A stretch of 64,000 bases of DNA from Verrucomicrobiia bacterium (GCA_035574275.1 DATLYY010000003.1:20482-84481), one strand, 5' to 3'; positions 23,785-48,910 are shown, counted from the stretch's first letter. Program-made: numbers and translations. Notes: a model not told the origin generated them from the letters alone.

Positions 23785-23810
23785 CTTTTCCGTAACCCTT
23801 TCCCCCTCTC

Positions 23811-23852
23811 CGCGTCGGAGAGGGGGTTAGGGGGTGAGGTTAACAGAGCAAA
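23811..23852 (-). repeat. copy 1 (diverged) of the 42-nt hairpin element CCCCTCTCCG(c/t)GTCGGAGAGGG-TTAGGG-GAGGTTAA
   Basis: Shares the 9-bp stem / 3-nt loop and the TTAGGGnGAGGTTAAC tail with copies at 33856-33898 and 37924-37965. Confidence 0.6.
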
Positions 23853-23857
23853 AAAAA

Positions 23858-23889
23858 GCCCCCCGTACGGGGGGCTTTTTCGTGACGCA
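23858..23889 (-). terminator. bidirectional rho-independent terminator (A8-GCCCCCCGTACGGGGGGC-T5)
   Basis: Perfect 8-bp GC stem flanked by A and T runs, just downstream of the pilin gene stop. Confidence 0.8.
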
Positions 23890-23892
23890 AGG

Positions 23893-24327
23893 TTACTGTA
23901 TCGCGTCGTCGGTCGTGACGATGAGGTTTCCGGTTTGATCAATCTGCCAAGTATCAACCGTCGCGTCGTCGTCCAGGTCTTTGGCGAGAGCCCGCGCCCG
24001 ACAGGTGAAAGCCGTAGCATTCGCCACGGTGAAGTCATAGGAGTAACGGGCGGTTAACCCGATTTCCACGCCAATACTGTCAAAGGCGTTCGGCGTCGCC
24101 GGACCGGCTATCAAAGCAGTTGACCAATATCGGTCTTTTTCCTGCCGAAAGGCCTGCTGCATCGTGTAAACCTGCTTCAGAATCTGCTTGGCTTCCGACT
24201 GTTTGGACTTGGTCGTCGCGCGCATAAAACGCGGAATCGCCAGAGCCGCCAGAATACCGATGATGACCACCACGATCATCAGCTCGATAAGGGTGAAACC
24301 CTTCTGGCTGTTTTTCTTGTTGAACAT
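23893..24327 (-). CDS. type IV pilin (class III signal peptide MFNKKNSQKG|FTLIELMIVVVIIGILAA)
   Basis: Canonical prepilin leader with Gly-1, Phe+1 and Glu+5. GGGAGG lies 6 nt before this ATG, and an upstream ATG at 24357 is less likely. Confidence 0.85.
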   Translation of the reverse strand: MFNKKNSQKGFTLIELMIVVVIIGILAALAIPRFMRATTKSKQSEAKQILKQVYTMQQAFRQEKDRYWSTALIAGPATPNAFDSIGVEIGLTARYSYDFTVANATAFTCRARALAKDLDDDATVDTWQIDQTGNLIVTTDDAIQ

Positions 24328-24377
24328 CTGTTCCTCCCTTTGGTTATTGGTTTTCATAATCGTCGGCTAACAGTTAC

Positions 24378-24393
24378 GCAACCCCAATGCCAA
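24378..24393 (-). promoter_or_regulatory. sigma-54 -24/-12 promoter (TTGGCAT-N5-TTGCG) upstream of pilin 1
   Basis: The minus strand reads TGGCATTGGGGTTGCG: GG-N10-GC spacing with a TGGCA -24 and TTGC -12, about 50 nt upstream of the pilin ATG. Confidence 0.55.
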
Positions 24394-24554
24394 AAGATGC
24401 CCAAGCCGGGCATTTTTTCGGCCTCGCAAGTGATTTGTTTACAAACGGTTACAGAAGGCCGCAAACTCCAGGCGGGTTTCAAACCCGCCCCTACACGGAT
24501 TCCAAGGGTAACCCGCCAATTATTTTGCAAAATGCGAATGATCAGAATGGTCTT

Positions 24555-24618
24555 TGTAGGGGCGGGTTTTAAACCCGTCCCTTGCCACCATCCGGGCAGG
24601 TTTAAAACCTGCCCCTAC
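24555..24618 (+). repeat. REP doublet (BIME-like): GTAGGGGCGGGTTTTAAACCCGTCCCT ... GGGCAGGTTTAAAACCTGCCCCTAC
   Basis: Two palindromes of 25-27 nt separated by an 11-nt spacer, 38 nt upstream of the RAYT start. Confidence 0.8.
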
Positions 24619-24655
24619 CATTGACAAACCGAAATGTCCATGCATTTTTTGCCGA

Positions 24656-25264
24656 ATGTCAATAGAGAACCGGCCTAAACCCCAGCGCCGTTCCATTCGG
24701 CTGCGGGGCTACGATTATTCCAGGGAGGGTGGATATTTCATAACCATCTGCACTGGGAATAGAGAATCTCTCTTTGGCGAAATCATAGATGGCCAGATGC
24801 GATTGAATGACCTCGGGCTGATAGTCCAGAAGGTTTGGGATGAATTGCCCGAACATTACCCGTCGATTGAATTGGATAAATTTGTCATTATGCCCAATCA
24901 TATTCACGGGATTATCATCCTTGTAGGGGCGGGTTTGAAACCCGCCCTTTCCACCCCCCGGGCAGGTTTAAAACCTGCCCCTACAGGTGAAAATTCGAAG
25001 AAACGTTCACTGGCGGAAATTGTCCGGGCGTTCAAGACATTCTCTGCTCGACGAATAAACGAATTTCGACGAATGCCGGGCCTTCCCATCTGGCAACGGA
25101 ATTATTACGAACATATTATCCGCAATGAATCCTCCCTAAACAAAATCCGGGAATACATTAAGGGCAATCCATTGAATTGGGCCTTGGACATCGAAAACCC
25201 GGCCATTTTATCCAATCCGAATAGCCGCCGAAGCGAAGAAAAATTCTGGAACGTATCGGCGTAA
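24656..25264 (+). CDS. REP-associated tyrosine transposase (RAYT, IS200/Y1-like) carrying an in-frame REP-doublet insertion
   Basis: HUH motif (HIHGII) and a C-terminal WQRNYYEHIIRNE tyrosine helix. Between them, 22 residues (VGAGLKPALSTPRAGLKPAPTG) are encoded by a REP doublet at 24922-24985. Confidence 0.8.
   Translation: MSIENRPKPQRRSIRLRGYDYSREGGYFITICTGNRESLFGEIIDGQMRLNDLGLIVQKVWDELPEHYPSIELDKFVIMPNHIHGIIILVGAGLKPALSTPRAGLKPAPTGENSKKRSLAEIVRAFKTFSARRINEFRRMPGLPIWQRNYYEHIIRNESSLNKIREYIKGNPLNWALDIENPAILSNPNSRRSEEKFWNVSA
24922..24985 (+). repeat. REP doublet located inside the RAYT coding sequence
   Basis: Near-identical to the 24555-24618 doublet. The reading frame is maintained. Confidence 0.8.
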
Positions 25265-25282
25265 ATGGCCGGTGAGGCACAA

Positions 25283-25315
25283 CAAAAAAGCCCCGCTCTT
25301 GCGGGGCTTGATTTA
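25283..25315 (-). terminator. bidirectional rho-independent terminator (A6-GCCCCGC-TCTT-GCGGGGC-TTGATTT)
   Basis: Hairpin between the convergent RAYT and pilin-2 3' ends. Confidence 0.7.
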
Positions 25316-25333
25316 ATCGTGCCGATTCTTGAC

Positions 25334-25771
25334 TTACAATATCGCGTCGTCGGAAGTGACAACCAGATTGCCGGTATTGTCAATTTGCCAGACATCAGCG
25401 GCCGGATCCGTGTCTAAAGCCGGAGAACTGGCAGTTGCGACGCAGATAAAAGCGGTGGCATTTGCAACTGTCATTGTATAGGTATATCTTGAGTTTGAAG
25501 CAATATCGACACCAATCCGTGCAAAAGCCGTGTCTGCTCCGTTTGCATAAGCAGAAACGCCGGCTCCCCAATATCCATCGTACTGCTGTCTGTAAGATAG
25601 CTGCATTGTATAAACTTCCTTTAAAATCGTTCTTGCCTCCGACTGCTTGGCTTTGACGGTTGCCAACATGAAACGCGGCAGAGCCATCGCCGCCAAAATG
25701 CCGATGATAACCACCACAATCATCAACTCTATCAAGGTGAACCCTTTGTCCCGTCTCATAAGTTTAGGCAT
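25334..25771 (-). CDS. type IV pilin paralog (leader MPKLMRRDKG|FTLIELMIVVVIIGILAA)
   Basis: Canonical class III signal. The mature N-terminal 45 aa are about 85% identical to pilin 1 and the C-terminal beta domain is diverged. The ORF track start (25828) is probably too long. Confidence 0.85.
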   Translation of the reverse strand: MPKLMRRDKGFTLIELMIVVVIIGILAAMALPRFMLATVKAKQSEARTILKEVYTMQLSYRQQYDGYWGAGVSAYANGADTAFARIGVDIASNSRYTYTMTVANATAFICVATASSPALDTDPAADVWQIDNTGNLVVTSDDAIL

Positions 25772-25794
25772 ACGTCCCTCGCACCCCTTTTTAT

Positions 25795-25810
25795 GGCAAA
25801 CCCCGTTCCA
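25795..25810 (-). promoter_or_regulatory. sigma-54-like -24/-12 promoter (TTGGAAC-N5-TTTGCC) upstream of pilin 2
   Basis: GG-N10-GC spacing, 24 nt upstream of the ATG at 25771. Confidence 0.5.
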
Positions 25811-25979
25811 AAACCGCTTTATTTTCATCTTCCTTGTCCATCAACGACTTACCTTGCCGCGGGGCTTTTTGGGTTCCGAAGAGGCCATTGGCGGCGAGCC
25901 GGCCGCCTTGCGTTCTGCAAGGGTTATCTCCTTTTCCAGCTTGAAAAGTCGCCAATTCACTACGCTTCTTTCAACCTGA

Positions 25980-26408
25980 TTAGGATCTCGTATCGTCAGA
26001 AACAACCACCAATGAGCCTTTCTCGTCAATCGTCCACACGTCTGTCGTAGCGTCGCCATCCAAAATACCAGAAGTTGCTCTACAGACAAAAACACTGTCA
26101 TAAACTACCGTGAAAACATAGGAATAGCGATTGGTGCAATTAAAATCCACACCAATCGGGAGAAATGCATACGGATTTGCTGCGGAGCCTTCGATACCTC
26201 CGGCTGGCCAAAAAACTCCGGTATTCTGCCGATAAGCCAATTGCTGTTGATAAATTTCCTGCAACTTTGATTTGGCTTCATCCTGCTTGCTTGGTGTTGG
26301 CGGGGCGATCGTTATATATTTTGTTTCAGTACAGCCCCAAGCCAGCAACATTAAGACCGTCAAACCCAAAACCACAATCTCCTCAATTCCAAACTTTCTT
26401 GTTTTCAT
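25980..26408 (-). CDS. pilin-like paralog with a degenerate prepilin leader replaced by a lipoprotein-like signal (…LLAWGC)
   Basis: The C-terminal 90 aa align with pilins 1/2 (NRYSY.FTV...DVW.ID..G.LVV.SDD). The N-terminus lacks G|F..E and instead has a hydrophobic core followed by Cys. Confidence 0.6.
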   Translation of the reverse strand: MKTRKFGIEEIVVLGLTVLMLLAWGCTETKYITIAPPTPSKQDEAKSKLQEIYQQQLAYRQNTGVFWPAGGIEGSAANPYAFLPIGVDFNCTNRYSYVFTVVYDSVFVCRATSGILDGDATTDVWTIDEKGSLVVVSDDTRS

Positions 26409-26422
26409 ATCTTCCTCCTACT

Positions 26423-26438
26423 GCAAAGCTTGTTCCCA
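26423..26438 (-). promoter_or_regulatory. sigma-54-like -24/-12 promoter (TTGGGAAC-N4-TTTGCA) upstream of pilin-like 3
   Basis: GG-N10-GC spacing with the TTGCA -12 element. The -12 lies only 15 nt from the ATG. Confidence 0.45.
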
Positions 26439-26468
26439 AACCCCAGCGTCGCCGTTCTCTATTCTACG

Positions 26469-28486
26469 CTAACGACTTGACTGCCTTTTCGATTTCTTTG
26501 GCTCCATCGCAGCAATTGGAGCCGACCCTGCTTTCTTGCTTTCTGCAAGGGTTATTTCTTTTTCCAGCCTCATTATTCTCTTTTGCACTTCCTCCCCCTT
26601 CTCCCCCCAAGCGACGGTTTTGTGATAGCGGTTCAAGGCCTTCTTTTTCGCCCCGCGCCATTCGTAGTACAAGCCGGAGCGGTAGAGGTACAGAACGAGC
26701 ATTTTGACCGCCTGCGGGTCGTTCTGCATCACCCGGTCATCCGCCGTCCAGAGATTGGAAACCTCCCACATCAACTGCCGCTCGAGGGAAACGGTGTCCA
26801 GAACGAAGGGGGTGTCTATCAATTGGAAGAGAAAGCCGGTCGGCTGCAAGCGCTCGACCAAGTCCTTGTCCCGCTCGGTGAATTCCAGAAAAACCGGGAC
26901 TTTTTTCTGCGTCAGCCGCGTGGTCCAATGACGGAAAAGCGCATCCCCCTCTCTTTTCTTCGGCTTGGAGGAAAAGACCGTGGTGAGACGGGGAAAATTC
27001 TCAACCAAGCTTTTGCGGTACCAATCCGCCTCCATAAACGCCCGGTTCACCACCACCACGTCCTTGCGCCACCCCTCGCCGTATTGCACTCCGCGCAGAA
27101 CAAAATCGAGCGCGGGGGAATCGAGAAAAACCACCCCCCCCGGAGGAACGGGGGAAAGCGCCTCCTGCGCCATCTTCAAGGCAATTCGGTTTTCAGATAG
27201 GTCGCATAGGGGACGGGAAAAGGTCCAGGGGATCAAACTGAATAGCAAAAACAGACCCGCCAGCCCTACGCGGGCAAAGCCGACCAGAAAATTGGAAACC
27301 GCGCCGACGGCATGCTCCACCACGCCAAAGAAGGCCGCAATGGTCGTGGCGATGCCGAGCCCCAAGGCAAAAAGGGAAAAGACCAGATAGCCGTGCAAAT
27401 CCGGATTGTCCGGGATAACCTCGGCCGCCAGGAGGGCGGTGACCAAAAGGTTGCCGGCGAGCAGGAAAGCCGCCTTCCAAAACCAGCTTTTGTTTGTGAA
27501 AAGCAGAATCAAAAACCCGCCGAAGGCAAAGAAGAAAAGTCCCATTCCAAGCTGGTCAAACAAAACGGACAAAAGTTGGTGCATCTTTACCAGATTGTCG
27601 ATGAACGAGGTGGAAATGGTTTTGTAGGAATCGGTGGCCAAGACCAGATTGGCGGTGGAGGCAAAATCGGCCGGTCCCCCCCAGTTGAAAAGCGGCTGGC
27701 TCCAGGCCCGCACGGGCAGGTAGAGATAGGTTGAAATTCCAAGCAGAAACAAGAAGAACAAACCCATCCATTTTTTAAAATTCAAGCTGGTAAAGGTGGA
27801 CGGCCCCGCCACGGCGAAAAGAAACGGGAAGGTGGCCAAAAGAGTGATGTGGTGATTCCCCAATCCGAGAAACGCGACGAAAATTCCGAGCCAGAACCAG
27901 CGGGCTGTGGCATGATTCCCAACTTTGACTACGGCCGGCGTATAGTCGCCGCTTTCCTCGCCGAAGGACTCGAAGCCGGGCCGCGGAAAGGAAGCGGAGG
28001 GCTGCCTTGCCGCTTCGGGGCGGGGCGGCGGCGTTGCCCGCAGAAAACAATAAAGGGCAAAAGTGAACAAAAACGCCCCCAAGGTATAAACCTCCGCCCG
28101 CACCGCCTGAATCCAGAAAGTGAAAGTGAAACCGATGGTCAAAGTGGTGAAGAAAGCCACCAGATTCCGCCGGGCCGCCGAGCCCCCCAAAAGTTCGTTC
28201 TGTCTTTTCAAAAACATTACCAGCGAAAGATGGAAGAAAACAAGCGCCAAGGCGCCGCAAAAACCGGAGAAAAGATTCTGCTGATAAACAAACCCGCCGA
28301 TGGGCAGGTAGCTGAAAAGCTTGGCCATAAGAACGTAGAGCGGAAACCCCGGCCGGTGCGGTACGCCGAGCGTCTTGACATTGGCCACCAACTCGCCGGA
28401 ATCCCACCAGAAAACGGAGGGGGCAGTGGAAACGAGATACACCAGAAAGAAGAAGAAGAAAAGAAAACTTGGCCCCAGCGCCTTTT

Positions 28487-28490
<4 letters not shown>
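26469..28490 (-). CDS. second DUF2723 (TMEM260/PMT-like GT-C) membrane protein paralog
   Basis: Same polytopic architecture and conserved N-terminal loop (PSVFWWDSGEL) as 21685-23784. The start is set to MKKALGPSF (28490), directly after the stop of the response-regulator gene. The ORF track N-terminal extension (to 28781) overlaps that gene. Confidence 0.8.
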
Positions 28491-29848
<1,358 letters not shown>

Positions 29849-29966
29849 ACTCCCCCATTTTGGGCCAAAAGTAAACGGCCCCCTTTCCTTATTTTATCGG
29901 CAAATTTTGTGGAATTTTCAGAGGGAAATGCAAATAGAAACGCTGTGCGGGTGAAGCAGCCCCGCC

Positions 29967-31214
29967 CTATTCTTTCGGCTCTTTTTGGCCGGAGCCGAAG
30001 ATATCCAGCATTTTTACGCCGGGAGTGTATTCGAGGGTGGCCGGCTCCGTGATGCGCATCAAGGCGGCGGTCACTTCTTGAATGCGCCCGGCCGCTTCCT
30101 CGATGATTTTCAGCTTTTCCTCCACGTCCGGGGGCAGGTCTTTTGTACGCAGGCGGACCAACTGGGCGTTCCCGATGACCGCCGTGAGCGGGTTGTTCAC
30201 CTCGTGGCTGACGGCAATGGCGGTCTCGATGATCGCCGCCAGCCGCTCTTTTTTTATTTCCTCCGACTGGGAGAGGGACAAGGCCATTACCGCCCGGCGG
30301 ATTTCAAGATAGGACAAAACATTTTCCGCCCCGAGCAGAACCGCGGCAAGCTTTTCTAAAACGGCGGTCTTCTGCCCCTCTTCTATTGCGACCGAACTAC
30401 CGAGGTAAAAAAGCCCCCCGAATTTCCCGCCGGTTTTTACCGGGATAATCAAAGCCGACTTCGAGCCGGCCGCCCTGAAGCGTGCCTCCGCCGTCCCCAA
30501 TCGGGACAAAAGTTGAACCTCCCCCTTCCCCCAGAGTTTGCCGAAGGCGGAATGCGGGTCCAGTTCCGAATGGCTTTGTTCCTCGGCGGTGGAAGCTCCG
30601 GCGGAGAGGAAAAATTCGCGGAAGGTTTTTTCCTCATCGAACAAAAACCCGACGAGGTTGAAGCTCTCTTTTTTTAAAAAATTCCGCGCCCAGAAAAGAA
30701 ACGCTCCCGGTTCCAGGGGGGCGACCGGCCTCGCACCCGAATGTGCGATTGCCGCTTCTTTCTGTTTTTGCGAAAGCGTCCGCTCGAAGGTCAGGGCGAA
30801 TTGGATGCCGAGGGCGGAGAGAAACTCCTCATCCCCGGCAAAATTCCGCTCCTTTTTATCCAGCCCTTCGAGCAACCCGAGCGGGCCGAAACTGCCGGAA
30901 ACCGGCACCCCGAAAACCGCGCGGGCTCCTTCCCGCTTGAGCGAAAGATGAAACCCCTCCACTCCGTAGTTTTTTCGCAGCCCGGCCAGCACTTCCTTTT
31001 CCAGTTCGGCCAAGGCCGAAAGCGCCTGTCTTTGCCCGGATTCGATAACGATTTCCTTTTCCCCCAGGAAATTGATGTGCAACGAGAGCGCTTCCAGCTC
31101 TAAAAGTTCGGCAACCTCCCCCAAAATCCGCTTGGCGAGCGGCTCGAACTCCCCCTTGGCCAAGGTAAGCGTTTTTAGGATTTCAAACTTTTTTCTAAAC
31201 CCGGTCTCCGACAT
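29967..31214 (-). CDS. GAF-domain sensor protein with a HisKA phospho-acceptor domain but no HATPase_c domain
   Basis: H-box SHEVNNPLTAVIGNAQL lies near the C-terminus and the protein ends about 75 aa later without N/G1/G2 boxes. A 118-nt non-coding gap follows. Confidence 0.7.
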   Translation of the reverse strand: MSETGFRKKFEILKTLTLAKGEFEPLAKRILGEVAELLELEALSLHINFLGEKEIVIESGQRQALSALAELEKEVLAGLRKNYGVEGFHLSLKREGARAVFGVPVSGSFGPLGLLEGLDKKERNFAGDEEFLSALGIQFALTFERTLSQKQKEAAIAHSGARPVAPLEPGAFLFWARNFLKKESFNLVGFLFDEEKTFREFFLSAGASTAEEQSHSELDPHSAFGKLWGKGEVQLLSRLGTAEARFRAAGSKSALIIPVKTGGKFGGLFYLGSSVAIEEGQKTAVLEKLAAVLLGAENVLSYLEIRRAVMALSLSQSEEIKKERLAAIIETAIAVSHEVNNPLTAVIGNAQLVRLRTKDLPPDVEEKLKIIEEAAGRIQEVTAALMRITEPATLEYTPGVKMLDIFGSGQKEPKE

Positions 31215-31466
31215 AATTCCCCATCCCCCTACCTCGCAAGGCCCATACCGCTCAAACCAAACTCATACCAAATAAACGATTTTTTTGTTGAATAGTAACT
31301 AATTGAAAACAAACTACTTGTGCCGATAAATTAAAGCTTTCTATAATAGCTGACGCCTCAGTTCCCCAATTCCCCCTGCAAGCCGTTTCACATAAGCGGC
31401 CAAAGAGCAAGGAGTTGCCCAAACACAAGCCCCAGCGAATCCCCTCTGTTTTTGGAAATCTTGTTC

Positions 31467-31527
31467 TTGGTAGCCGACACTTCAGTGTCGGTGCATCCAA
31501 TTCCTCGACTACGGTCGAGGCTACCAA
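31467..31527 (-). repeat. 61-nt structured element: outer 7-bp stem TTGGTAG/CTACCAA enclosing two 7-bp hairpins (CCGACAC-TTCA-GTGTCGG and CCTCGAC-TACG-GTCGAGG)
   Basis: Seen directly in sequence, just 3' of the SDR gene. The second hairpin plus GCTACCA recurs at 33818-33842. Confidence 0.5.
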
Positions 31528-31537
31528 CTACCGGAAT

Positions 31538-32332
31538 TTAATATAACGAAACGCCGCCGTCGGCGATGATGGTCTGGCCGACGATCCAGTCCGCTTCTTC
31601 GGAGGCGAGAAAGGCCACCACGTTGGCCAAATCCTCCGGCTGGCCGATCCGCCCCGCAGGGGTGCGTTTGACCGATTCGGCGACTATCTGTTCGTTGCCG
31701 GGAATGATGCGCAAAGAATCAGTATCCACCGGCCCGCCGTTTACGGCGTTCACCAGAATTCCCTTGGGGGCCAAATCGACCGCAAGATAGCGCACCATCG
31801 CCTCGATGGCCGCTTTGTTCACTCCCATTGCCGCATATCCGGGAATGTAGCGCCGCGAGCCGTAGGAAGTGAGCGCGATGATTCTCCCCTTCGGCCCGGT
31901 CATCATCTTGGCCGCCTCCCTGGAGCAGAGATAAAACGAGGTGATGTTGGCGTCTAAAGTCAGCTTCCAGTCCTCGAGCGACATTTCGAGCGTGGGGCCG
32001 AACATCGCCATCGCGGCGTTGGCGACAAACACATCCAGCCGTCCGTACGCTTCCTGCACCTCGCCGAACATCTTTTGAATCGATTCCGGATTGGCCAGAT
32101 TGCCCCGCACCATCACACACTCCGCGCCGAGCGCCTTCACTTCCAATTCGGTTTCCTTGGCCTTCTGGCGGCTTTTGAAAAAGCCGAGCGCCAGCTTGGC
32201 CCCTTCCGCCGCCATTTTCAAAGCCACCGCCCGGCCGATGCCCCGCGTCCCGCCGGTGATTAAAACAACTTTGTCGGTAAAGCGCGCCCCAATGCCGGAG
32301 GCCCTTGCCTGTGTTTCGGTTTGCATTGCCAT
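31538..32332 (-). CDS. SDR-family oxidoreductase (3-oxoacyl-ACP-reductase-like)
   Basis: TGGTRGIGRAV Rossmann motif and a YxxxK-like active-site region. The start is set at MAMQTETQ (ATG 32332) because of the upstream promoter. The ORF track extends to 32446. Confidence 0.8.
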   Translation of the reverse strand: MAMQTETQARASGIGARFTDKVVLITGGTRGIGRAVALKMAAEGAKLALGFFKSRQKAKETELEVKALGAECVMVRGNLANPESIQKMFGEVQEAYGRLDVFVANAAMAMFGPTLEMSLEDWKLTLDANITSFYLCSREAAKMMTGPKGRIIALTSYGSRRYIPGYAAMGVNKAAIEAMVRYLAVDLAPKGILVNAVNGGPVDTDSLRIIPGNEQIVAESVKRTPAGRIGQPEDLANVVAFLASEEADWIVGQTIIADGGVSLY

Positions 32333-32339
32333 TGGTGTT

Positions 32340-32368
32340 TTTATACCAAATCCCCCAAAACTTGTCAA
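32340..32368 (-). promoter_or_regulatory. sigma70-type promoter TTGACA-N17-TATAAA ending 7 nt before the ATG (leaderless SDR mRNA)
   Basis: Minus strand: TTGACAAGTTTTGGGGGATTTGGTATAAAAACACCAATGG. Confidence 0.6.
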
Positions 32369-32375
32369 GCTGCCT

Positions 32376-32711
32376 CTACGTTTTTCTCCGCAGAGCATCG
32401 ACCACCGCCTCTTCCATTTCGACAACCACGGTGGTATGGTTTTCAATCAGCCCCACAATCGCATTCCGCGGGCCTTTGCGCCACTCCTCGCTGCCGTAAA
32501 AGGCATCCTGGCTTTTCTGCCGGTCTTCCAAACCTTGATAAGCGCGAATCAGATAGTAGGAATCGCCATCGTGAAGCGAAGGACCGAAGTCGACTACATC
32601 CACCTTCCAGCGTTTGAGCATCGGCATCGATTTTTCCAGAACGAGCCGGTGAAACTCCTCCCGCCTGCCGGGTTTGAGATTATAGGCGCGGATTTCGACC
32701 GTTTTCTTCAT
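32376..32711 (-). CDS. NIPSNAP-family protein
   Basis: About 110 aa with the N-terminal EIRAYNLKPGRREEF pattern typical of NIPSNAP/Dabb-like ferredoxin-fold proteins. Confidence 0.6.
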   Translation of the reverse strand: MKKTVEIRAYNLKPGRREEFHRLVLEKSMPMLKRWKVDVVDFGPSLHDGDSYYLIRAYQGLEDRQKSQDAFYGSEEWRKGPRNAIVGLIENHTTVVVEMEEAVVDALRRKT

Positions 32712-33160
32712 TTATCTCTTCCGGCGCGGCCGCTGTTGGCGGTCTGTGATGGGGGCGTTTCCCGGGTGGCGGGCTCAATCAAACTGGATGCGGCCAGAAG
32801 CCCGGCCTTGAGAATAAGATTCTCCGGAATGGCCTCGAACACGGTCTCCTCCACTTCGACCGTCCGGCACTCGGACTCTCCGCAAACCGAGCAGCAGGGG
32901 CTGGCGCCGGCCTTTCCCTCCAGCCACTCCTCCATCGGCCGTCCCCCCATCCAAATGCGGTTGGACTCCGCGGGATTGGCCTTGAACGTTTTTTCATCGA
33001 TTGCCCGCGTTTCCAGAACCGGGCGAATTCCCAGCGGGGCAAGCGCAAGCGAAAGTTTCTCTACGGCCCGTTCCATCTCCTTTTGCGTCGTGCCGCAGCG
33101 TTCACAGGTCCTTCCATCCGGCGTCACCAATCGTTGCCAGACAATCGGCAGTTTTTTCAT
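32708..33160 (-). CDS. cysteine-rich (CxxC...CCxxC...C) thioredoxin-like/DUF2703-like protein
   Basis: Conserved Cys spacing. The start is set to MKKLPIVW. The family assignment is tentative. Confidence 0.45.
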   Translation of the reverse strand: MKKLPIVWQRLVTPDGRTCERCGTTQKEMERAVEKLSLALAPLGIRPVLETRAIDEKTFKANPAESNRIWMGGRPMEEWLEGKAGASPCCSVCGESECRTVEVEETVFEAIPENLILKAGLLAASSLIEPATRETPPSQTANSGRAGRDK

Positions 33161-33528
33161 CCCCTCTTCCCTTCCTGCACGAACCGCAAACAATTCCCGT
33201 CCGCGTCCTTGACGTACATTTCCCGCGTCCCCCAGGTTTGATCCACCGGCCCGGAGTCAATCGGGACAGTTTTGGCCTTGAATTCCCTATGGAGCGCATC
33301 CACGTCGTCGACGTAGATATTCGCTACGCCGCCGGCAACCCCGTCGCCGGAGAAGGAGGAAAGATGCAGCCAGACGCCGTCCCGCGAAATTCCCATATAG
33401 CAGGGGTCCGTTCTTTTCTCATCCGGCCGGACGGCAAATTCCTGCTTGAAACCGAGCCGCCCGCAATAAAATTCCTCCGCCTTAATGGAATTGGAGATAT
33501 GCAAAACCGGGATGGCGAATTTGAGCAT
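33157..33528 (-). CDS. VOC/glyoxalase/bleomycin-resistance family protein
   Basis: About 120 aa with a beta-alpha-beta-beta-beta glyoxalase-like pattern (HLSF...GNCLRFVQ). Confidence 0.7.
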   Translation of the reverse strand: MLKFAIPVLHISNSIKAEEFYCGRLGFKQEFAVRPDEKRTDPCYMGISRDGVWLHLSSFSGDGVAGGVANIYVDDVDALHREFKAKTVPIDSGPVDQTWGTREMYVKDADGNCLRFVQEGKRG

Positions 33529-33537
33529 CCAAGCCCC

Positions 33538-33798
33538 TTATTTCCCTTCCGCTTCCCGCTCCATTTTATAAAGGCGGGTGTAGTAATCGGCAAACTCGTT
33601 CAGATGGGCGAGCGCAATTTTGCCGGTCAAAATGGGGTCGTCGCCGGTTACGTTTGTGGAGGGGTCGACAAGGCCGTGTTCCAGTTCCACGTCCAGCCCC
33701 ATCCGGAACTGCTCCACGTCAAAGCGCTTCCAATCAATGCCCAGCATTTCGCCGATTTGGCGGGCCTGCTCGGCGGTGAACTGTTTTTTGGCTGACAC
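33538..33798 (-). CDS. small hypothetical protein (86 aa)
   Basis: GTG start preceded by AAAGGAGAAAAG. No known motifs recognised. Confidence 0.5.
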   Translation of the reverse strand: MSAKKQFTAEQARQIGEMLGIDWKRFDVEQFRMGLDVELEHGLVDPSTNVTGDDPILTGKIALAHLNEFADYYTRLYKMEREAEGK

Positions 33799-33817
33799 CT
33801 TTTCTCCTTTGCCCCCT

Positions 33818-33842
33818 CTCGACTGAAGTCGAGGCTACCACC
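33818..33842 (-). repeat. second copy of the CCTCGAC-N4-GTCGAGG-CTACCA hairpin
   Basis: Matches hairpin 2 plus the right flank of the 31467-31527 element. Confidence 0.45.
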
Positions 33843-33855
33843 TTAAAACCTTTGT

Positions 33856-33898
33856 CTTGTCCCCTCTCCGTGTCGGAGAGGGTTAGGGTGAGGTTAAC
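33856..33898 (-). repeat. copy 2 of the 42-nt hairpin element; its GGTTAA supplies the TAA stop of the DinB-like gene
   Basis: CTTGTCCCCTCTCCGTGTCGGAGAGGGTTAGGGTGAGGTTAAC, 41/42 identical to copy 3. Confidence 0.7.
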
Positions 33899-34409
33899 CC
33901 ATCCTTTCCAAGAATCTTTCTATCTGCCTTCGATGCCGCAAAATATGGACGATGGCGTGTTCCAAAAGCTGTTCCAAATCGTAGGTCGGGCCCCAGCGTA
34001 CGGTCATTTTTGTGTTCTGTATCTCCTCATCCGTCATCTCCCACTTCCCTTCGAGCGTTCCCGCCGTGTAGCGCAGAAAGCCGTCGATTTTCCCCGCCGC
34101 TTCCTGCCGGGCAACCATTACACCCGACCCGCCAGGTCCATTTGGCGACCCGCGCAAGTGTTCTTTGGGGGTTTGGGAGGGAATGCCGAACGCCCCCCGG
34201 ATGTAGTCCGCATAGCCGTATCCGGCCCGCACCACGTGGGTGATGATGGTTTGGATGGAGCGGCAGTCGGGGTCTTTGGTGTCGGGGTCGACGATGCGCT
34301 CATATTGCTCCACCGTGGCTCTTCCCACCACGTTTTTTAATTCCCCCCCCGCCCGTTCGTACTCATCCATCATCGCCCCCACCCCGCCTTTACGGTAAGC
34401 TTTTGTCAT
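33894..34409 (-). CDS. DinB/YfiT-like (DinB_2) metal-dependent protein
   Basis: His-rich helical bundle with a C-terminal H..H.RQ motif. Confidence 0.65.
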   Translation of the reverse strand: MTKAYRKGGVGAMMDEYERAGGELKNVVGRATVEQYERIVDPDTKDPDCRSIQTIITHVVRAGYGYADYIRGAFGIPSQTPKEHLRGSPNGPGGSGVMVARQEAAGKIDGFLRYTAGTLEGKWEMTDEEIQNTKMTVRWGPTYDLEQLLEHAIVHILRHRRQIERFLERMG

Positions 34410-34473
34410 TTTCCTCCAAACGATAATTCACAAATTAATATTTCCAATTTGACTGCAACTTTCATTTGTATGT

Positions 34474-35505
34474 TCATCTTCCATGATGTCGAGCAACTTC
34501 TTCTTTGCTCAAGCGCAGAAACCGAGCGGCGTTGATGTATAGAATGTCCCGTTTCTGCTCCTCAGACAGAAACGGTGCCGATTCAATTGCGTCTATGGAG
34601 GGTTCGATGACGCCGGGCCACACCATCTGGTCGGAGCCAAACATAATCCGTTTTCCAAAACCGGCTTCCACAATCGTGCGCAGAAAACGGTAAAGCTCGG
34701 CGCGGGGGAGTCCGAAGATGATTCCGCCCAATTCCGCGTACACCTGGGGATGCGCCCAAAATAGGGCCAGTAAATCATCCAGCATTGGCCAGCCAGCATG
34801 CATAATGTAAACTCGTAGTTTCGGACGCCGGATGAGCGCTTCTTCCAAGGTGAGCGGACTGTGTAAAGCGGCCCGATAGCGGCCGGCTCCCAAATAAGGA
34901 GCCCCGGGCGGGCCGGTCCCGATGTGGATGCCGACCGGAATGTCCAGTTCTTCCGCCACCGCGAGGTATGGTTCAAAAAGAGAGTCATCGGGTCGAATGC
35001 CGACATATTGGTTGGTTACCTCGGCCAGAACTGCAAAGTGCCCGGACTGATATAATCGGCGGAGCGAATCAGGGGAGATTTTTTCGCGGCCAAACTGGAA
35101 CTGAAAACCGGCGATGAATCGGCCCGGCGCGGCCTTGCTCCATTCTCGCACCCGTTCCAAAGTCCCGCTCAAGACACCAAAAACGTTGCGCCTTTTCATC
35201 GCCGCAATGGTCTGCCACATAAGTTCCTCGTCTGTTTTGGGCGACCAAACAGGATCGGGACAGGGGGGGTTTTTCTGCCAAGCGATAAAGATATCCCCCC
35301 ACGATTCGGCCGGATCGTTGGTTGGAAATCCTTGGGTGGGCACACACAGCCCCAAAGGGGGCGGCCCGTTGGCGTCCGCTGACAATGCGTGGAGGTGCAT
35401 ATCGATGACTGGAAGGCGTCCTTGGGCGGAAAGCGGATTTGCAAAAAGAAGAATCAATAGCCCCAGGAGTAGTCCCAACCTTCTTGTTTCCGCATGATTT
35501 GTCAT
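34474..35505 (-). CDS. secreted amidohydrolase-family (amidohydrolase_2) metal-dependent hydrolase
   Basis: Signal peptide, an IDMHLHA metal-binding start, and TIM-barrel hydrolase motifs. The start is set to MTNHAET (35505) by promoter position. Confidence 0.75.
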   Translation of the reverse strand: MTNHAETRRLGLLLGLLILLFANPLSAQGRLPVIDMHLHALSADANGPPPLGLCVPTQGFPTNDPAESWGDIFIAWQKNPPCPDPVWSPKTDEELMWQTIAAMKRRNVFGVLSGTLERVREWSKAAPGRFIAGFQFQFGREKISPDSLRRLYQSGHFAVLAEVTNQYVGIRPDDSLFEPYLAVAEELDIPVGIHIGTGPPGAPYLGAGRYRAALHSPLTLEEALIRRPKLRVYIMHAGWPMLDDLLALFWAHPQVYAELGGIIFGLPRAELYRFLRTIVEAGFGKRIMFGSDQMVWPGVIEPSIDAIESAPFLSEEQKRDILYINAARFLRLSKEEVARHHGR

Positions 35506-35512
35506 TGGCGGC

Positions 35513-35541
35513 TTTATACCATACTCCGAAAAACTTGTCAA
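35513..35541 (-). promoter_or_regulatory. TTGACA-N17-TATAAA promoter ending 7 nt before the ATG (leaderless)
   Basis: Minus strand: TTGACAAGTTTTTCGGAGTATGGTATAAAGCCGCCAATGA. Confidence 0.6.
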
Positions 35542-35686
35542 CTACTCCACAACCGTCAAAAGCCTTTCCGTGGAGGCTTGGGGGCGGTAATCATGGAGAA
35601 ACGAGAAAAGCGGCCTAACTCCGGCCGCTTTCTCGAAATTGCAAAAACCGAAAAGGTCGGGAACTATCCCTAAAAAAGCTTGGCTC

Positions 35687-36124
35687 CTACTTGGCCGGAA
35701 TCAGGTCGAACTTGCCGGCGCCTTCGTTGTAAAAGAGCGCGCCCTCCGTGGAGTCACCGCCGCTCCAGTGCTTGTGCCCGCCCGGAATCCGCAGGAATTC
35801 TCCGGGGCCGACCCGCTTTTCACCGTCGTCGTCCTTATACAGATAAGCCCCCTTGATAACCACGAGCCAGTTATCGTTGGTGTGTGTATGCCATCCGGCG
35901 TCGAATCCGGGCACGAATTTGACAAAGGAACCAAAGCGCCCTTTGTCCGGATCCCCCCATAGGGTTGCCCGGGAAGCGCCGGGAACTATGTCCTTGTAGG
36001 TTGCCTGGTCGGCCGAGGCAAAGGTCGCTTTTTTCGCCTTGGGCTGTTTCGCCTGCCCAAAACCGATTACGTAGACAACGGCTAAAAGAATCGCCGCCGC
36101 CAGAAACGCCACTATTTTTTTCAC
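35687..36124 (-). CDS. secreted cupin-domain protein
   Basis: Signal peptide plus cupin-like G.H.H....E...G / G..H motifs. GTG start preceded by AAGGAGG. Confidence 0.65.
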   Translation of the reverse strand: MKKIVAFLAAAILLAVVYVIGFGQAKQPKAKKATFASADQATYKDIVPGASRATLWGDPDKGRFGSFVKFVPGFDAGWHTHTNDNWLVVIKGAYLYKDDDGEKRVGPGEFLRIPGGHKHWSGGDSTEGALFYNEGAGKFDLIPAK

Positions 36125-36153
36125 GTCTTCCTCCTTTGTTTGTTTGCGTAGTT

Positions 36154-36182
36154 GGTATAGCCAATCTTTGAAAACTTGTCAA
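36154..36182 (-). promoter_or_regulatory. TTGACAAGTTTT-N-TATACC promoter with a 30-nt SD-containing leader
   Basis: Same extended -35 as the other copies. Here a leader with AGGAGG follows. Confidence 0.5.
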
Positions 36183-36905
36183 CTACGTGAGGACTTCCAA
36201 AAGCTTTTCTGAAAGCGCCTCCGGCACGGTAATCATTGAGCAATGGGAGGTGGCCAGTTCCATGTATTTCCAGTCGGGCCGCCCTTTGAGTTCCCGCGCC
36301 AAGCGGGGAAATGAGCCGTCGGGGGGATTGCCCGTGCAAAAAATGAAAGTTCGCGGAATTTTTTCCGCTTTGGGATTTCCGAGAATGGCCGGCTCAATGA
36401 CCGTGCGATAAGGATGCGCCGTCAGCTTGGAACGGAGCCACTCCACGTCCTTCTCAATGCTGATTCCAAGCGTTTCGCTCTTTGGGTCCAAGGCCGGAAT
36501 CTTCCACCCCTCCCCTTCCGTTTTGGCCAGTTCTTCCAGCATTATTCGGAAGCGCTCCACCTGCAAATCGGAAAGGGATTTTCCATTTTCCGGCACAAAG
36601 GCGTCCAAGTAAACCAAGTGGGCAATGCGCTCCGGCACTCGATGAGAAACAGAGCCGATTACCATCCCGGAGTAGCTGTGCCCCACCAAAACGACATCGT
36701 GCAAATCCTGAAATTGGAGGAAGTTCACCACGTCATCCACGTGTGTCTGCAACCCGACTTCGGGAGTCAAAAGATGGGAACGCTCTCCCAAACCGGTCAA
36801 AGTGACGGCGGAGGCCTCGTGCCCGTGGGCGCACAGCCTGGGTATCACCCGGTTCCAGCACCACGCGCCAAAAAAGGCGCCGTGGACTAAGACGAAATGA
36901 GCCAT
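36183..36905 (-). CDS. alpha/beta-hydrolase fold esterase (methylesterase/SABP2-like)
   Basis: HGAFFGAWCW N-terminus, GHSYSG nucleophile elbow, and a C-terminal His. Confidence 0.75.
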   Translation of the reverse strand: MAHFVLVHGAFFGAWCWNRVIPRLCAHGHEASAVTLTGLGERSHLLTPEVGLQTHVDDVVNFLQFQDLHDVVLVGHSYSGMVIGSVSHRVPERIAHLVYLDAFVPENGKSLSDLQVERFRIMLEELAKTEGEGWKIPALDPKSETLGISIEKDVEWLRSKLTAHPYRTVIEPAILGNPKAEKIPRTFIFCTGNPPDGSFPRLARELKGRPDWKYMELATSHCSMITVPEALSEKLLEVLT

Positions 36906-36912
36906 TAGCTTT

Positions 36913-37305
36913 TTATTTCTTTATGTACGGCTTCAACTGCAAATCAATGCGGCCGATGTGGCTCTTGAGCCAGTCCTCCGCGATGCCCATAAGCTCGTGC
37001 GCGTCCTCGGATAAATAGCCGCGCGATTCATACCGCTTGCGAAAGTCGTCATAGACCGAAAGAAAGCGGGCGTGATCCTCCCGGTTTTTGTCCGCTATCG
37101 GACAGCGGTATTCCTCCATGCACCGTTCCTCGTATTTGAAATGCCCGCGGAAGTAGCGCTCCAGAAAATCAAGCAAAAGTCCGAATGTTTTCTCCCCCCG
37201 GCCTTCGCCGAGAGCGGTCTGAAAATCCCCCACCGTCTTGAAAAGCATTTTGTGCTGTTCGTCGATGCGCGGCTCGCCGACGGCATAGCCGTCACTCCAT
37301 TTCAT
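36913..37305 (-). CDS. hemerythrin-like metal-binding protein
   Basis: H...H..E...H....H.....D ligand pattern (DEQHK, HFKYEE, DHARF). The start is set to MKWSDGY, adjacent to the upstream stop. Confidence 0.7.
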   Translation of the reverse strand: MKWSDGYAVGEPRIDEQHKMLFKTVGDFQTALGEGRGEKTFGLLLDFLERYFRGHFKYEERCMEEYRCPIADKNREDHARFLSVYDDFRKRYESRGYLSEDAHELMGIAEDWLKSHIGRIDLQLKPYIKK

Positions 37306-37859
37306 TTTTTTACCTCTCTGTTTCCATATTTTTCCGCCAGCTTTTTGACTGTGGTCACATTGCGCAAAGTGGTGGGCTGGCCGAGCGTTTTTTCCAAAAG
37401 CGGCCCGGAAAATTTGGTCTCCTTGATTGAGCTCGCGCTCAAAAGCCAATAAAGTTCCCGGCCGTGGAAATCAAAGCGGTCGATTTCGGATTCGGCGGCC
37501 AAAAACTTCTTTTTCGCCTCCGCGGAAACCGGCGCCTGCAAAAAGCCGACGTAAAGCGCGTGGCTTTTGGCGACCTCCGATTCGGAAAAAGGCCGGTAGC
37601 CGGCGATTTCGGCCAGTTCCGAACTGGAACGAATGAAGGTGGAAACCTCGTAGCCCAGCGATTTTTTCAAATGCGCTTCGATTTTCTTTTCGAGTTGCAC
37701 CGGATTTTTGGAAGAGGAATCGAAGATAACGTTGCCGCTGGCGATGAAGGTTTCGACGCTGGAGAAACCGAGGGCTTCAAAAAGCTTTTTCAACTTCTCC
37801 ATCTTCACGGTATGCCCGCCGACGTTAATGGCGCGCAGAAAAGCAATATAGGTGGGCAT
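37302..37859 (-). CDS. DUF1697-domain protein
   Basis: N-terminal YIAFLRAINVGG signature of DUF1697. Confidence 0.65.
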   Translation of the reverse strand: MPTYIAFLRAINVGGHTVKMEKLKKLFEALGFSSVETFIASGNVIFDSSSKNPVQLEKKIEAHLKKSLGYEVSTFIRSSSELAEIAGYRPFSESEVAKSHALYVGFLQAPVSAEAKKKFLAAESEIDRFDFHGRELYWLLSASSIKETKFSGPLLEKTLGQPTTLRNVTTVKKLAEKYGNREVKK

Positions 37860-37923
37860 CGGGACAAATCTATGGAAGAATGCGGATGGTAGTCAAGCAA
37901 TCGTTCACCCCATCCTTTGGCCT

Positions 37924-37965
37924 TCTTGTCCCCTCTCCGTGTCGGAGAGGGTTAGGGAGAGGTTA
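37924..37965 (-). repeat. copy 3 of the 42-nt hairpin element; its GGTTAA supplies the TAA stop of the small ORF
   Basis: CTTGTCCCCTCTCCGTGTCGGAGAGGGTTAGGGAGAGGTTAA. Confidence 0.7.
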
Positions 37966-38093
37966 AAAAATCAGCGCAAAAGCAAGCCGATTCCCAGAAT
38001 GAGCGCTGTCAGCGACAGATAAACCAGCGCGCTGATGGCCTTTCCGGAACGGTTCGGGAATCTCTGCTGAATCAGTTTGACGATGTGAATCAT
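37962..38093 (-). CDS. small ORF (43 aa) with its own promoter and SD; a -1 shift at an A4 run would yield a 40-aa TM peptide (MIHIVKLIQQRFPNRSGKAISALVYLSLTALILGIGLLLR)
   Basis: ATG 38093 follows AAGGAGAGAGG. The in-window frame ends MIHIVKLIQQRFPNRSGKGHQRAGLSVADSAHSGNRLAFALIF. The adjacent frame encodes a perfect hydrophobic helix but has no start codon, suggesting a homopolymer frameshift (AAAA at 38040-38043). Confidence 0.35.
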
Positions 38094-38135
38094 CCTCTCT
38101 CCTTTCCGCGTTGCTTACAATCCAATTGCCTCAAA

Positions 38136-38164
38136 TGAATAGCCAATTGGCGAAAAGTTGTCAA
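38136..38164 (-). promoter_or_regulatory. TTGACAACTTTT-N-TATTCA promoter for the small ORF
   Basis: Extended -35 as in the other copies, with a 17-nt spacer. Confidence 0.45.
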
Positions 38165-38174
38165 CCAAAATCGC

Positions 38175-38636
38175 TTATTGCGCCTCCACCGTCACTTCCG
38201 ATTTTATCGAGTTGGCGATGTAGCATTCCTCGTGGGCGGCGTGGTGCAGGGCGGAAAGCTCCGAAGCGGAGGGCTGCTTTTCCCTCGAAAACCGAATTTT
38301 CGGCCGGAGCGTGATGCGGGTAATGGCGTATTTTCCCTTTTCGTTTTTTTCCATCAGGCCAAACGCGTCGTCCTCGTAGGCATCGACGACAAAGCCCTGC
38401 TTGGAGGCCAGCGACAAGAAGGTGAGCATATGGCAGCTCGAAGCCGACGCCACCAAGGCCTCTTCCGGGTCAATCGCTTCCGCAACGGAGAGCGGCGCGC
38501 GGACAACTTGGGGAGAGGCGGAGGCGGGGATTTTTATCCCGCCGTCAAAGCTCCATTCATGCCCCCGGCTGTACTGCTGGCCGGTGAACTTCGCCCCGTT
38601 CCGGCTCCACGTAACTTTGGCTTCGTATTTATGCAT
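38175..38636 (-). CDS. OsmC/Ohr-family peroxiredoxin-like protein
   Basis: About 150 aa with the two conserved Cys (SSCHM...EECY) of OsmC. Confidence 0.75.
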   Translation of the reverse strand: MHKYEAKVTWSRNGAKFTGQQYSRGHEWSFDGGIKIPASASPQVVRAPLSVAEAIDPEEALVASASSCHMLTFLSLASKQGFVVDAYEDDAFGLMEKNEKGKYAITRITLRPKIRFSREKQPSASELSALHHAAHEECYIANSIKSEVTVEAQ

Positions 38637-46858: not shown

Positions 46859-46865
46859 TGTTTTA

Positions 46866-46894
46866 TACCCAATGCCCAAAAACTTGTCAACCCG
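46866..46894 (-). promoter_or_regulatory. TTGACA-N17-TATAAA promoter ending 7 nt before the ATG (leaderless)
   Basis: Minus strand: TTGACAAGTTTTTGGGCATTGGGTATAAAACACCAATGG. Confidence 0.6.
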
Positions 46895-48580: not shown

Positions 48581-48790
48581 CTACGCCTTGACGACGTTGG
48601 CGGCCTGCGGCCCCTTGGGGCCTTCGACCACGTCGAAGCGGACGGTCTCGCCTTCGGCCAACGACTTGAAGCCCTTATCGGCGATTGCCGAATAATGCAC
48701 AAAAACCTCTTTGCCATCATCCATACGGAGAAAACCAAAGCCTTTTGCGTCGTTAAACCACTTAACGGTACCCTGTGCCAGAAAAATCAC
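48581..48790 (-). CDS. cold-shock protein (CspA family), copy 1 of 4
   Basis: RNP1/RNP2 motifs KGFGFL and [11 protein letters not shown] start; the ORF track extension upstream is unlikely. Confidence 0.85.
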
Positions 48791-48910
48791 CACCTTGTTC
48801 TGTTTCGTGTTGCCGGGACTCCCGCCCCCCGTTTGTTTGCGGAGGGCGGAAACCCCTTTGGGCAAAATGCCTCTTTCAGTTTCCCCGATCCAATCGGGGA
48901 GCTCGGGAGA

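Follow-up and report, generated by a model that had tools for sequence, protein, structure and literature searches.

Triplex-type repeats behind genes in a bacterial metagenome sequence are very probably local variants of the BoxC/PIT/TMECO family

Introduction

A stretch of 64,000 nucleotides (nt) from assembly GCA_035574275.1 (DATLYY010000003.1:20482-84481, Verrucomicrobiia bacterium) carries two near-identical copies and one diverged copy of a short hairpin element, each close to the end of a gene. The whole stretch is called the window here, the copies are numbered 1 to 3 in order of position, and the relatives and other loci compared with it have L numbers. A first-pass annotation described an element inserted exactly at stop codons, either a mobile repeat or a structure of the 3' untranslated region (3' UTR). 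The locus raises the questions of what this element is, whether it is directed to stop codons and whether it is kept as DNA or as RNA. The reading we prefer, with a probability of about 0.6, is that the copies are BoxC/PIT/TMECO repeats with a triplex-type G-rich strand, that is, structure-dependent, non-coding repeats at the DNA level which are tolerated behind genes.

Three copies of the repeat in the window

Copies 2 and 3 share the 42-mer CTTGTCCCCTCTCCGTGTCGGAGAGGGTTAGGG(T/A)GAGGTTAA with 41/42 identity, and none of 100 dinucleotide-preserving shuffles gave a 42-mer match, so none is expected by chance. Both have the layout CCCTCTCCG-TGT-CGGAGAGGG-TTA-GGG(T/A)GAGGT, with a pyrimidine arm, a purine arm and a third arm separated by two loops. 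Copy 1 reads CCCCCTCTCCG-CGT-CGGAGAGGGGG-TTA-GGGGGTGAGGT-TAA, in which all three G/C runs are lengthened together and small insertions are present. The positions are as follows.

23802..23843, plus strand: copy 1, with CCCCCTCTCCG at 23802-23812, CGT, CGGAGAGGGGG at 23816-23826, TTA, GGGGGTGAGGT at 23830-23840 and TAA
33856..33897, plus strand: copy 2, with the left flank CTTGTC (common to copies 2 and 3) at 33856-33861
33862-33870, plus strand: pyrimidine arm of copy 2, CCCTCTCCG, followed by loop 1, TGT, at 33871-33873
33874-33882, plus strand: purine arm of copy 2, CGGAGAGGG, followed by loop 2, TTA, at 33883-33885
33886-33894, plus strand: third arm of copy 2, GGGTGAGGT, followed by TAA at 33895-33897
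37925..37966, plus strand: copy 3, with arms at 37931-37939, 37943-37951 and 37955-37963

The near-identical pair and the diverged third copy of the first-pass annotation were thus found again, with two corrections of position: copy 3 lies one nucleotide further on (37925-37966, not 37924-37965), and copy 1 about 9 nt further to the left. The single difference between copies 2 and 3 is a T to A change at 37958, in the third arm and opposite an A-T pair. The G-rich strand is the plus strand in all three copies, and every flanking gene is on the minus strand. An nhmmer profile search found no further good copy in the 64-kb window. The three copies per 64 kb are all intergenic; copy 2 overlaps its neighbouring gene by the stop codon only.

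The copies are predicted to fold into a G-C-rich hairpin of 9-11 bp with a 3-nt loop (9 bp in the 42-mer), and the fold containing the hairpin has a predicted z of -2.2 to -5.5. The hairpin is not followed by a U-tract on either strand: the gene-sense strand continues with GACAAGA or GAAAGG, and the other strand with TTAGGG. Fold and flanks therefore agree with the earlier description of a 9-bp stem-loop that is not an intrinsic terminator. That description had put the stem 17 nt downstream; on the mRNA strand its distance is 11 nt when counted from the stop codon and 15 nt when counted from the first T of TTAA. Like Rho-independent terminators, the element is a G+C-rich hairpin after a gene, but it has no U-tract, and copy 1 stands behind a genuine terminator. 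The flanks of the window copies are CTTGTC or CCTTTC on one side and TTAA on the other. A search of the whole window against Rfam gave nothing at the gathering thresholds, and around copy 2 it gave only noise at E values up to 10.

Assignment to the BoxC/PIT/TMECO family

The family was recognised through a full-text literature search, which brought up Holder et al. 2015 (PMC4666352) as well as Kaplan et al. 2016 (PMC5100583); both treat a repeat of Escherichia coli named BoxC, later PIT (potential intrastrand triplex) and then TMECO. Motifs of this kind have been known since the 1990s, and Holder et al. cite the earlier BoxC/PIT work of Bachellier and colleagues and of Hoyne & Maher. The published pattern is CCCTCNCCC-N3-6-GGGNGAGGG-N3-GGGNGAGGG, with one mismatched triplet allowed; copies with TTA as loop 2 are "type A" and those with CCG "type B" (PMC4666352, PMC5100583).

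The arms of the window copies fit this pattern at 8 of 9 positions each, and the loop lengths and the type-A TTA loop are as published. Their G-rich block has 19 of 21 bases in common with the E. coli block GGGAGAGGGTTAGGGTGAGGG (HPG1). When copy 2 was compared by blastn with 5,426 complete E. coli genomes, 5,418 of them contained a match of 86-90% over 39-42 nt, with no annotated feature there, and the sequences of the E. coli K-12 copies behind lldD and ilvC were inspected directly. On this sequence evidence, the three window copies are very probably local variants of the BoxC/PIT/TMECO family. The repeat is not a new class of element, as it has already been described in E. coli.

The window copies resemble the E. 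coli family in the three-block architecture, the arm sequences, the type-A TTA loop, the length of about 35-40 nt, and the intergenic, multi-copy occurrence. Variation of spacers and of presence or absence between relatives is shared as well, as is the lack of terminator features. Unlike E. coli BoxC, the window copies have an inverted ninth triad, in which T goes with a G-C pair instead of the G with a C-G pair of E. coli, and GAGG is followed by T. The three copies are also singletons, in one orientation and close behind genes. Among the named homologue clusters of the DinB protein encoded beside copy 2, the nearest bears a Zixibacteria name, with about 80% identity. The host is probably Zixibacteria-like, with the name of this cluster as the sole basis, and would thus lie outside the taxa named in PMC4666352 and PMC5100583.

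A scan with a degenerate core, using one genome per species, found at least 120 stretches in many phyla, in metagenome-assembled genomes (MAGs) as well as isolates, while about 1.5 chance matches are expected in the whole collection, as estimated from the information content of the pattern. Among the matches listed were Planctomycetota, Chloroflexota, Cyanobacteria, Bacteroidota, Proteobacteria, Acidobacteriota, Verrucomicrobiota and other phyla; the taxa included Gemmataceae, Anaerolineae, Dehalococcoidia, Pseudomonas, Xanthomonas, Enterobacter, Bifidobacterium and others. Between genomes of different phyla, no conservation of the flanks was seen among these matches. A scan of viral contigs gave one match, L001, with the same architecture. 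PIT elements in E. coli have neither promoter nor terminator activity according to published work, and E. coli TM loci have a published association with variable intergenic regions. Our literature searches brought up neither a later study of BoxC/PIT/TMECO function nor an established role for the motif.

The wide occurrence bears on three other identities that were considered and rejected. An integron attC site does not suit copies that lie 4-10 kb apart with several genes between them, nor a pan-bacterial motif. A Shine-Dalgarno or anti-Shine-Dalgarno mimic does not suit a motif that is also common in Bacteroidota, and would leave the covariation of the third arm (below) unexplained. The telomere-like TTAGGG is merely loop 2 plus the third arm.

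The third arm follows the hairpin by triplex rules

The G-rich strand of the E. coli motif forms a very stable intrastrand purine-motif triplex in vitro (PMC4666352, PMC5100583); by circular dichroism and nuclear magnetic resonance (NMR) the E. coli oligonucleotide is a triplex, and by NMR it is not a quadruplex. In all three window copies, 8 of 8 core triads are legal under the purine-motif rules (G*G-C, A*A-T, T*A-T), and the one difference between copies 2 and 3 exchanges T*A-T for A*A-T, which are both legal. Judged by these rules, the G-rich strand of the window copies would fold, as single-stranded DNA (ssDNA), into an antiparallel purine-motif triplex.

The third arm also covaries with the hairpin. 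In a sample of 177 distinct copies, chosen by an exact-core pattern from among the matches listed, the base after GAGG depends on the ninth hairpin pair: it is G in 105 of 107 copies with C-G, and T in all 17 with G-C, in 6 of 7 with T-A and in 4 of 6 with A-T. T opposite an inverted C-G pair would be the tolerated triad in the antiparallel motif. At the other end of the arms, the lengths of the C-run and of the two G-runs rise together across copies. The same holds for hairpins of other sequence. Pyrimidine/purine hairpins at the same loci have a third arm that mirrors the purine arm of the same hairpin, an A of which is faced by T or A, as in CCCTCCCC/GGGGAGGG/GGGTGGGG, CCCCTTCC/GGAAGGGG/GGGGTTAG and CCTTCTCC/GGAGAAGG/GGATGAGG. 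The third-arm score reached at least 7/8 in 36 of 108 strand entries, compared with 0 in the upstream control and 6 in the control placed 60 nt downstream.

Kaplan et al. 2016 (PMC5100583) viewed the same E. coli elements, as HPG1 and HPG2, as quadruplex formers, and a switch between G-quadruplex and hairpin was therefore weighed for the window copies. Their G-rich half is nearly identical to HPG1, which was reported to give a K+-dependent quadruplex signal. However, GGG occurs only twice in copies 2 and 3 (the series is GG, GGG, GGG, GG), so they fall outside the definition of four G3 tracts with loops of 1-7 nt (PMC5100583). The third arm, moreover, ends in T and not G in 17/17 copies with a G-C ninth pair, following the hairpin and not a tetrad, and the NMR result on the E. 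coli oligonucleotide argues for a triplex. We regard such a switch as very improbable.

Purine-motif triplexes form in DNA and not in RNA, according to the literature. Because the third arm tracks the hairpin by triplex rules, the quadruplex definition does not apply, and an RNA triplex of this motif is excluded in the literature, the comparison of sequences leads us to think that what is preserved is more likely a three-stranded fold at the DNA level, or a factor reading this fold, than a quadruplex or a simple RNA hairpin.

Comparison with related loci

A metagenome scan with a lineage-specific core gave only 5 loci, a number too small for statistics. L125 is syntenic with window positions 23015-34424 at 75-86% nucleotide identity, and L123 has the DinB and NIPSNAP genes in common with the window. 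In the L125 orthologue of copy 1, 33 of 33 arm bases are kept while 3 of 6 loop bases have changed, namely two of three in loop 1 and one in loop 2 (TTA to TCA). This orthologue continues as GAGGT|CAAAA; therefore TTAA is not part of the element. Other copies of the lineage read GAGGTTG or GAGGTCTA after the third arm.

The copies are not stably kept. L125 has an extra copy behind its NIPSNAP gene, 1 base past the TAG stop, and L130 a decayed one behind the same gene; the window has none at the NIPSNAP 3' end. L127, a closer relative (85.6% over 6.2 kb), is without copies 1 and 2, and its spacers at both places contain unrelated replacement sequence, with neither a clean empty site nor a duplicated flank. 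Every relative that was examined has a different set of genes between DinB and NIPSNAP, and synteny is interrupted beside copy 2. Decaying copies were seen in L130, L136, L137 and L138. This intergenic instability agrees with the published variability of E. coli TM loci. Inverted doublets of triplex-type repeats occur in the relatives L005, L122 and L126.

A hairpin with the same arm sequence and a partial third arm (CCCCTCTCC-ACTTGT-GGAGAGGGGTTGGGGG) was observed in L125 (4488-4517) and L131 (12244-12273). By position both apparently lie inside a TMEM260-like coding region, and the window has no match at the orthologous place.

Gene ends beside the copies

The genes and signals next to the copies are listed here.

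23850..23875, minus strand: intrinsic terminator of the pilin gene, GCCCCCC-GTAC-GGGGGGC followed by T8 (U8 tract)
33894..34409, minus strand: DinB-family gene of 171 amino acids, ending ...RFLERMG*; its TAA abuts copy 2 directly
37867..37896, minus strand: promoter-like site TTGACT-18-TAGATT for the DUF1697 gene, downstream of copy 3
37971..38093, minus strand: open reading frame (ORF) of 40 codons for a hydrophobic peptide; its TGA at 37971-37973 is 4 nt before the TTAA of copy 3

One copy of the three shares a stop codon, one lies a few bases past a stop and one is behind a terminator. The proposal that a terminal GGTTAA supplies the stops at copies 2 and 3 thus holds for copy 2, where the TAA of the DinB-family gene is the complement of TTA at 33894-33896. 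It fails for copy 3, where the ORF has its own TGA 4 nt away and the TAA of the element is out of frame. Copy 1 does follow a pilin terminator, as had been noted; the terminator is canonical, it serves the pilin gene at 23893..24357, and copy 1 begins 6 nt past its U-tract. The promoter-like site of DUF1697 is downstream of copy 3, which therefore belongs to the 3' end of the upstream unit and not to the 5' UTR of the next gene. The 40-codon ORF has its own promoter-like site (38136-38164) and a strong AAGGAGAGAGG ribosome-binding site but no Pfam match, and this putative gene may encode an unannotated small membrane protein.

Even the stop codon shared with copy 2 is most likely the gene's own. 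Most DinB homologues end ...RFLERMG*, and the element-free L127, L130 and L131 read ATGGGGTAG or ATGGGGTAA at this place. The window gene ends ATGGGTTAA with the element directly after it, leaving the ancestral ...ERMG* C-terminus intact. Since the element-free homologues end alike, the TAA of copy 2 would be the ancestral stop of the DinB gene. In L123, L125, L136, L137 and L138, 5-nt deletions at the junction have moved the DinB end to the TAA in loop 2, giving ...(M/I/L)TSP* or MSSP*, and in L136-L138 the remainder of the element is decaying or replaced. Read in gene sense, the element carries a TAA at its edge and another in loop 2, so that two of the three frames contain a stop. Among the matches listed, the loop-2 TAA also closes 8-10 other long ORFs in other phyla (…PSP*, …LTP*), as it does an ORF on the viral contig L001.

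Translation of the first 11 nt of the element as TSP* in L123, L125, L136 and L137 is what could be taken to favour conserved coding extensions. The first-pass annotation had stated that it would be refuted if the copies belonged to longer conserved 3' coding extensions. This candidate was rejected: copies 1 and 3 are non-coding, and the coding overlap is at most 4 codons and secondary to the junction deletions. Together with the shuffling result, this leaves coding extensions, or a chance low-complexity match, a negligible probability.

Position at gene ends fits an RNA structure too. Such a structure might protect mRNA from 3' exonucleases or attenuate read-through, like the REP (repetitive extragenic palindromic) and BIME hairpins of E. 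coli. The 9-11 stable G-C-rich pairs with their low z values, the placement upstream of the next promoter-like site, and the arms conserved at orthologous sites all agree with this. In L005, an Anaerolineae MAG, inverted doublets of the triplex-type repeat at 2210-2305 and 4257-4364 flank, within an ABC transporter operon, the gene for the substrate-binding protein. Flanking of such a gene is the classic position of REPs, where they act on mRNA stability in E. coli. However, the canonical terminator that precedes copy 1 makes it improbable that this copy is part of the pilin mRNA. A U-tract is missing, PIT has neither promoter nor terminator activity in E. coli, and across phyla there is no orientation bias with respect to transcription (next section). 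A plain hairpin leaves the conserved, covarying third arm unexplained, and the dominant T in GGGTGAGG would be A in the C-rich RNA, breaking a pyrimidine-motif RNA triplex. Several copies, finally, decay while the gene stays. A role in mRNA stability or attenuation, one of the two readings first offered for the element, therefore fits poorly with the terminator before copy 1 and with the purine-motif covariation, and we hold it unlikely.

Position relative to stop codons

Genes around the wider set of copies were called with a self-trained codon-usage caller, which reproduces the genes of the window. It put 42 of 157 copies inside calls, probably through errors in high-GC loci; these were excluded, leaving 115 intergenic copies from many phyla, all among the matches listed. 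A longest-ORF-first gene map, with 74 of 168 copies inside ORFs, was set aside as unreliable. The two co-directional orientations of the 115 copies occur at 32:31, and convergent and divergent settings at 20:14. The median distance to a facing stop is 62-88 nt, compared with 129-173 nt to a facing start, and about 8% of facing stops lie within 10 nt. So the family prefers the 3' sides of genes but is not directed at stop codons. Kaplan et al. 2016 (PMC5100583) likewise found the E. coli elements closer to the 3' ends of ORFs.

Within the window's lineage the picture is tighter, though the sample is small. About seven independent sites are known, and four of them lie 0-8 nt past a stop, all with the third arm first: the DinB 3' end (window, L123, L125), the NIPSNAP 3' end (L125, L130), L124 (6 nt past the stop) and copy 3 (4-8 nt past the stop of the small ORF). 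One of the others follows a terminator, and two are inverted doublets with a second triplex-type family. This second family, in the same clade (L131, L132), is oppositely oriented and lies 13-32 nt after stops. The E. coli copies behind lldD and ilvC are 9-13 nt after the stop with the same polarity as the window lineage, and in E. coli K-12 the copies nearest a stop are mostly of that polarity. The stop-codon association first proposed is thus seen in the lineage, at about 4 of 7 sites within 8 nt and in one orientation, and is lost across phyla, where distances are broad and orientations even.

A mobile element inserting site-specifically at stop codons or at TTAA would account for this polarity, and an IS200/IS605- or RAYT-like mechanism would fit because it inserts 3' of a short target without duplication. 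The lineage sites, the lldD and ilvC copies, and the gene-sense junction TAA|CCTC, found in 6 of 10 lineage copies (copies 1 to 3, L123, L124 and the L125 copy of copy 2), can all be read in this way. REP-like repeats with a GTAG head in the same genome hint at HUH/RAYT-type activity, and the missing target duplication is compatible with IS608-type transposition chemistry. Yet the remaining junctions are CAA (twice), TGA and AGA, and the copy 1 orthologue lacks TTAA. The stops vary (TAA, TAG, TGA), as do the offsets (0, 1, 4-8 and 6 nt), and L127 shows replaced sequence, not a clean empty site. The unconserved flanks, the roughly 8% of nearby stops and the 32:31 orientations across phyla count against insertion at stops, as does the opposite orientation of the second family in L131 and L132. 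Insertion of this kind is in our judgement improbable.

The more specific suggestion that the element is a miniature inverted-repeat transposable element (MITE) did not stand. It has no terminal inverted repeats, only an internal hairpin, and no target duplication was found at copies 1 to 3 or by comparison with L125 and L127. A TTAA-like target duplication had also been proposed for checking: a second TTAA occurs 13 nt beyond copy 2 only, with nothing comparable at copies 1 and 3. Like the MITEs Correia/NEMIS, ERIC and RUP, which are small non-autonomous repeats, the element overlaps gene 3' ends and donates stops, but it is much shorter and lacks their terminal repeats and target duplications.

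It may also be that triplex-type repeats are set down with a fixed polarity, in this lineage and perhaps beyond it, so that the third arm leads and lies only a few bases from the upstream stop, either through insertion directed by a TRA/TAA-like target at gene ends or through a selected function at the end of translation or transcription. We consider this doubtful. Tolerated DNA-level repeats remain the reading that we prefer.

Neighbouring repeats and genes

The part of the first-pass annotation that called the element REP-type is right in so far as it is an interspersed intergenic hairpin repeat; the GTAG/GTGG foot of REPs is absent, with CTTGTC/CCTTTC and TTAA as flanks. REP, BIME and REPIN sequences are likewise short intergenic palindromes, often 3' of genes, sometimes in inverted doublets, and hot spots of intergenic polymorphism. 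Unlike REPs and REPINs, the window hairpin has no GTAG/GTGG head and no known link to a RAYT, and it has a third, mirror arm. A GTAG-headed repeat adjoins copy 2.

33818..33838, minus strand: GTAG-headed repeat, GTAGCCTCGAC-TTCA-GTCGAG

Copy 2 and this neighbouring hairpin recur as a pair in L125 (9892-9975), at a site that is not orthologous and with 83% identity across 84 nt, so the two types of repeat may move or build up jointly. The GTAG-headed family, GTAGCCGACAC-N4-GTGTCGG paired with GTAGCCTCGAC-N4-GTCGAG, was observed at 31470-31524 and 33818-33838 in the window and at 9862-9923 in L125. Another GTAG-headed family, the perfect hairpin GTAGGGGCGGGTTTnAAACCCGCCC, occurs at 24473-24618 and 24923-24984, between two pilin genes, and as a single copy at 55378-55406; its repeats are arranged as inverted doublets like REPINs. 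Further along the window, at 48586-49721, four copies of a 223-nt unit, spaced by about 270-330 nt and 74-87% identical, overlap ORFs without a Pfam match.

A run of small minus-strand genes at about 32376-38636 comprises NIPSNAP, DUF2703, glyoxalase, DUF5661, DinB, amidohydrolase, cupin, alpha/beta-hydrolase, hemerythrin, DUF1697 and OsmC genes. Its content differs in every relative examined (L127, L130-L133), some of which have DarT-Macro genes there, and the run has the look of a variable island of stress genes. On the minus strand, nearly the same promoter-like sequence, TTGACAAGTTTT-N-GGTATAAA, in many cases with CCAATGGC behind it, is found at 32340-32368, 35513-35541, 36151-36182, 38136-38164 and 46862-46890. 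These sites precede several small genes of that strand, which may form a shared regulon.

Proposed explanation and its meaning

As repeats tolerated behind genes, the copies would spread and be kept at the DNA level. They would survive mainly just behind genes because neither the coding region nor the next promoter is disrupted there. With TAA in two of three frames, the element could overlap the last codons of a gene harmlessly and serve as a back-up stop. A strong hairpin in transcripts that cross it and local instability of the spacer would be side effects. This mechanistic part of the explanation is much less certain than the family assignment.

Several points weigh against it. The copies used for covariation were picked with exact cores, and related subfamilies among them are not independent events. 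Published in vivo probing with dimethyl sulfate in E. coli did not detect the triplex. In the window the G-rich strand is the template of transcription and, by GC skew, the leading-strand template, which is not the strand most exposed as ssDNA. Arms that stay intact at orthologous sites over about 20% divergence could reflect a real function under selection in the host, or else gene conversion of one copy by another. The clustering of about 4/7 lineage sites at most 8 nt from a stop, in one orientation, is tighter than passive tolerance alone predicts. Finally, neither an enzyme that could mobilise the element, in the 64 kb of genome with the ORFs annotated around the copies, nor a source copy nor a clean empty site came to light, so that spread at the DNA level is an assumption.

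If the doubtful polar placement were true, it would give BoxC/TM elements their first defined biological logic, for which a back-up stop in two frames, a roadblock and a 3'-end protector can be named as functions. For annotators the repeat is of direct use, because short C-terminal variants and spurious PSP-rich ORFs arise from overlap with it: the element can take over a gene's stop, giving recognisable …TSP*/…PSP* tails. For the family, an architecture of roughly 35 nt recurs almost base for base in a probably Zixibacteria-like MAG, as in E. coli.

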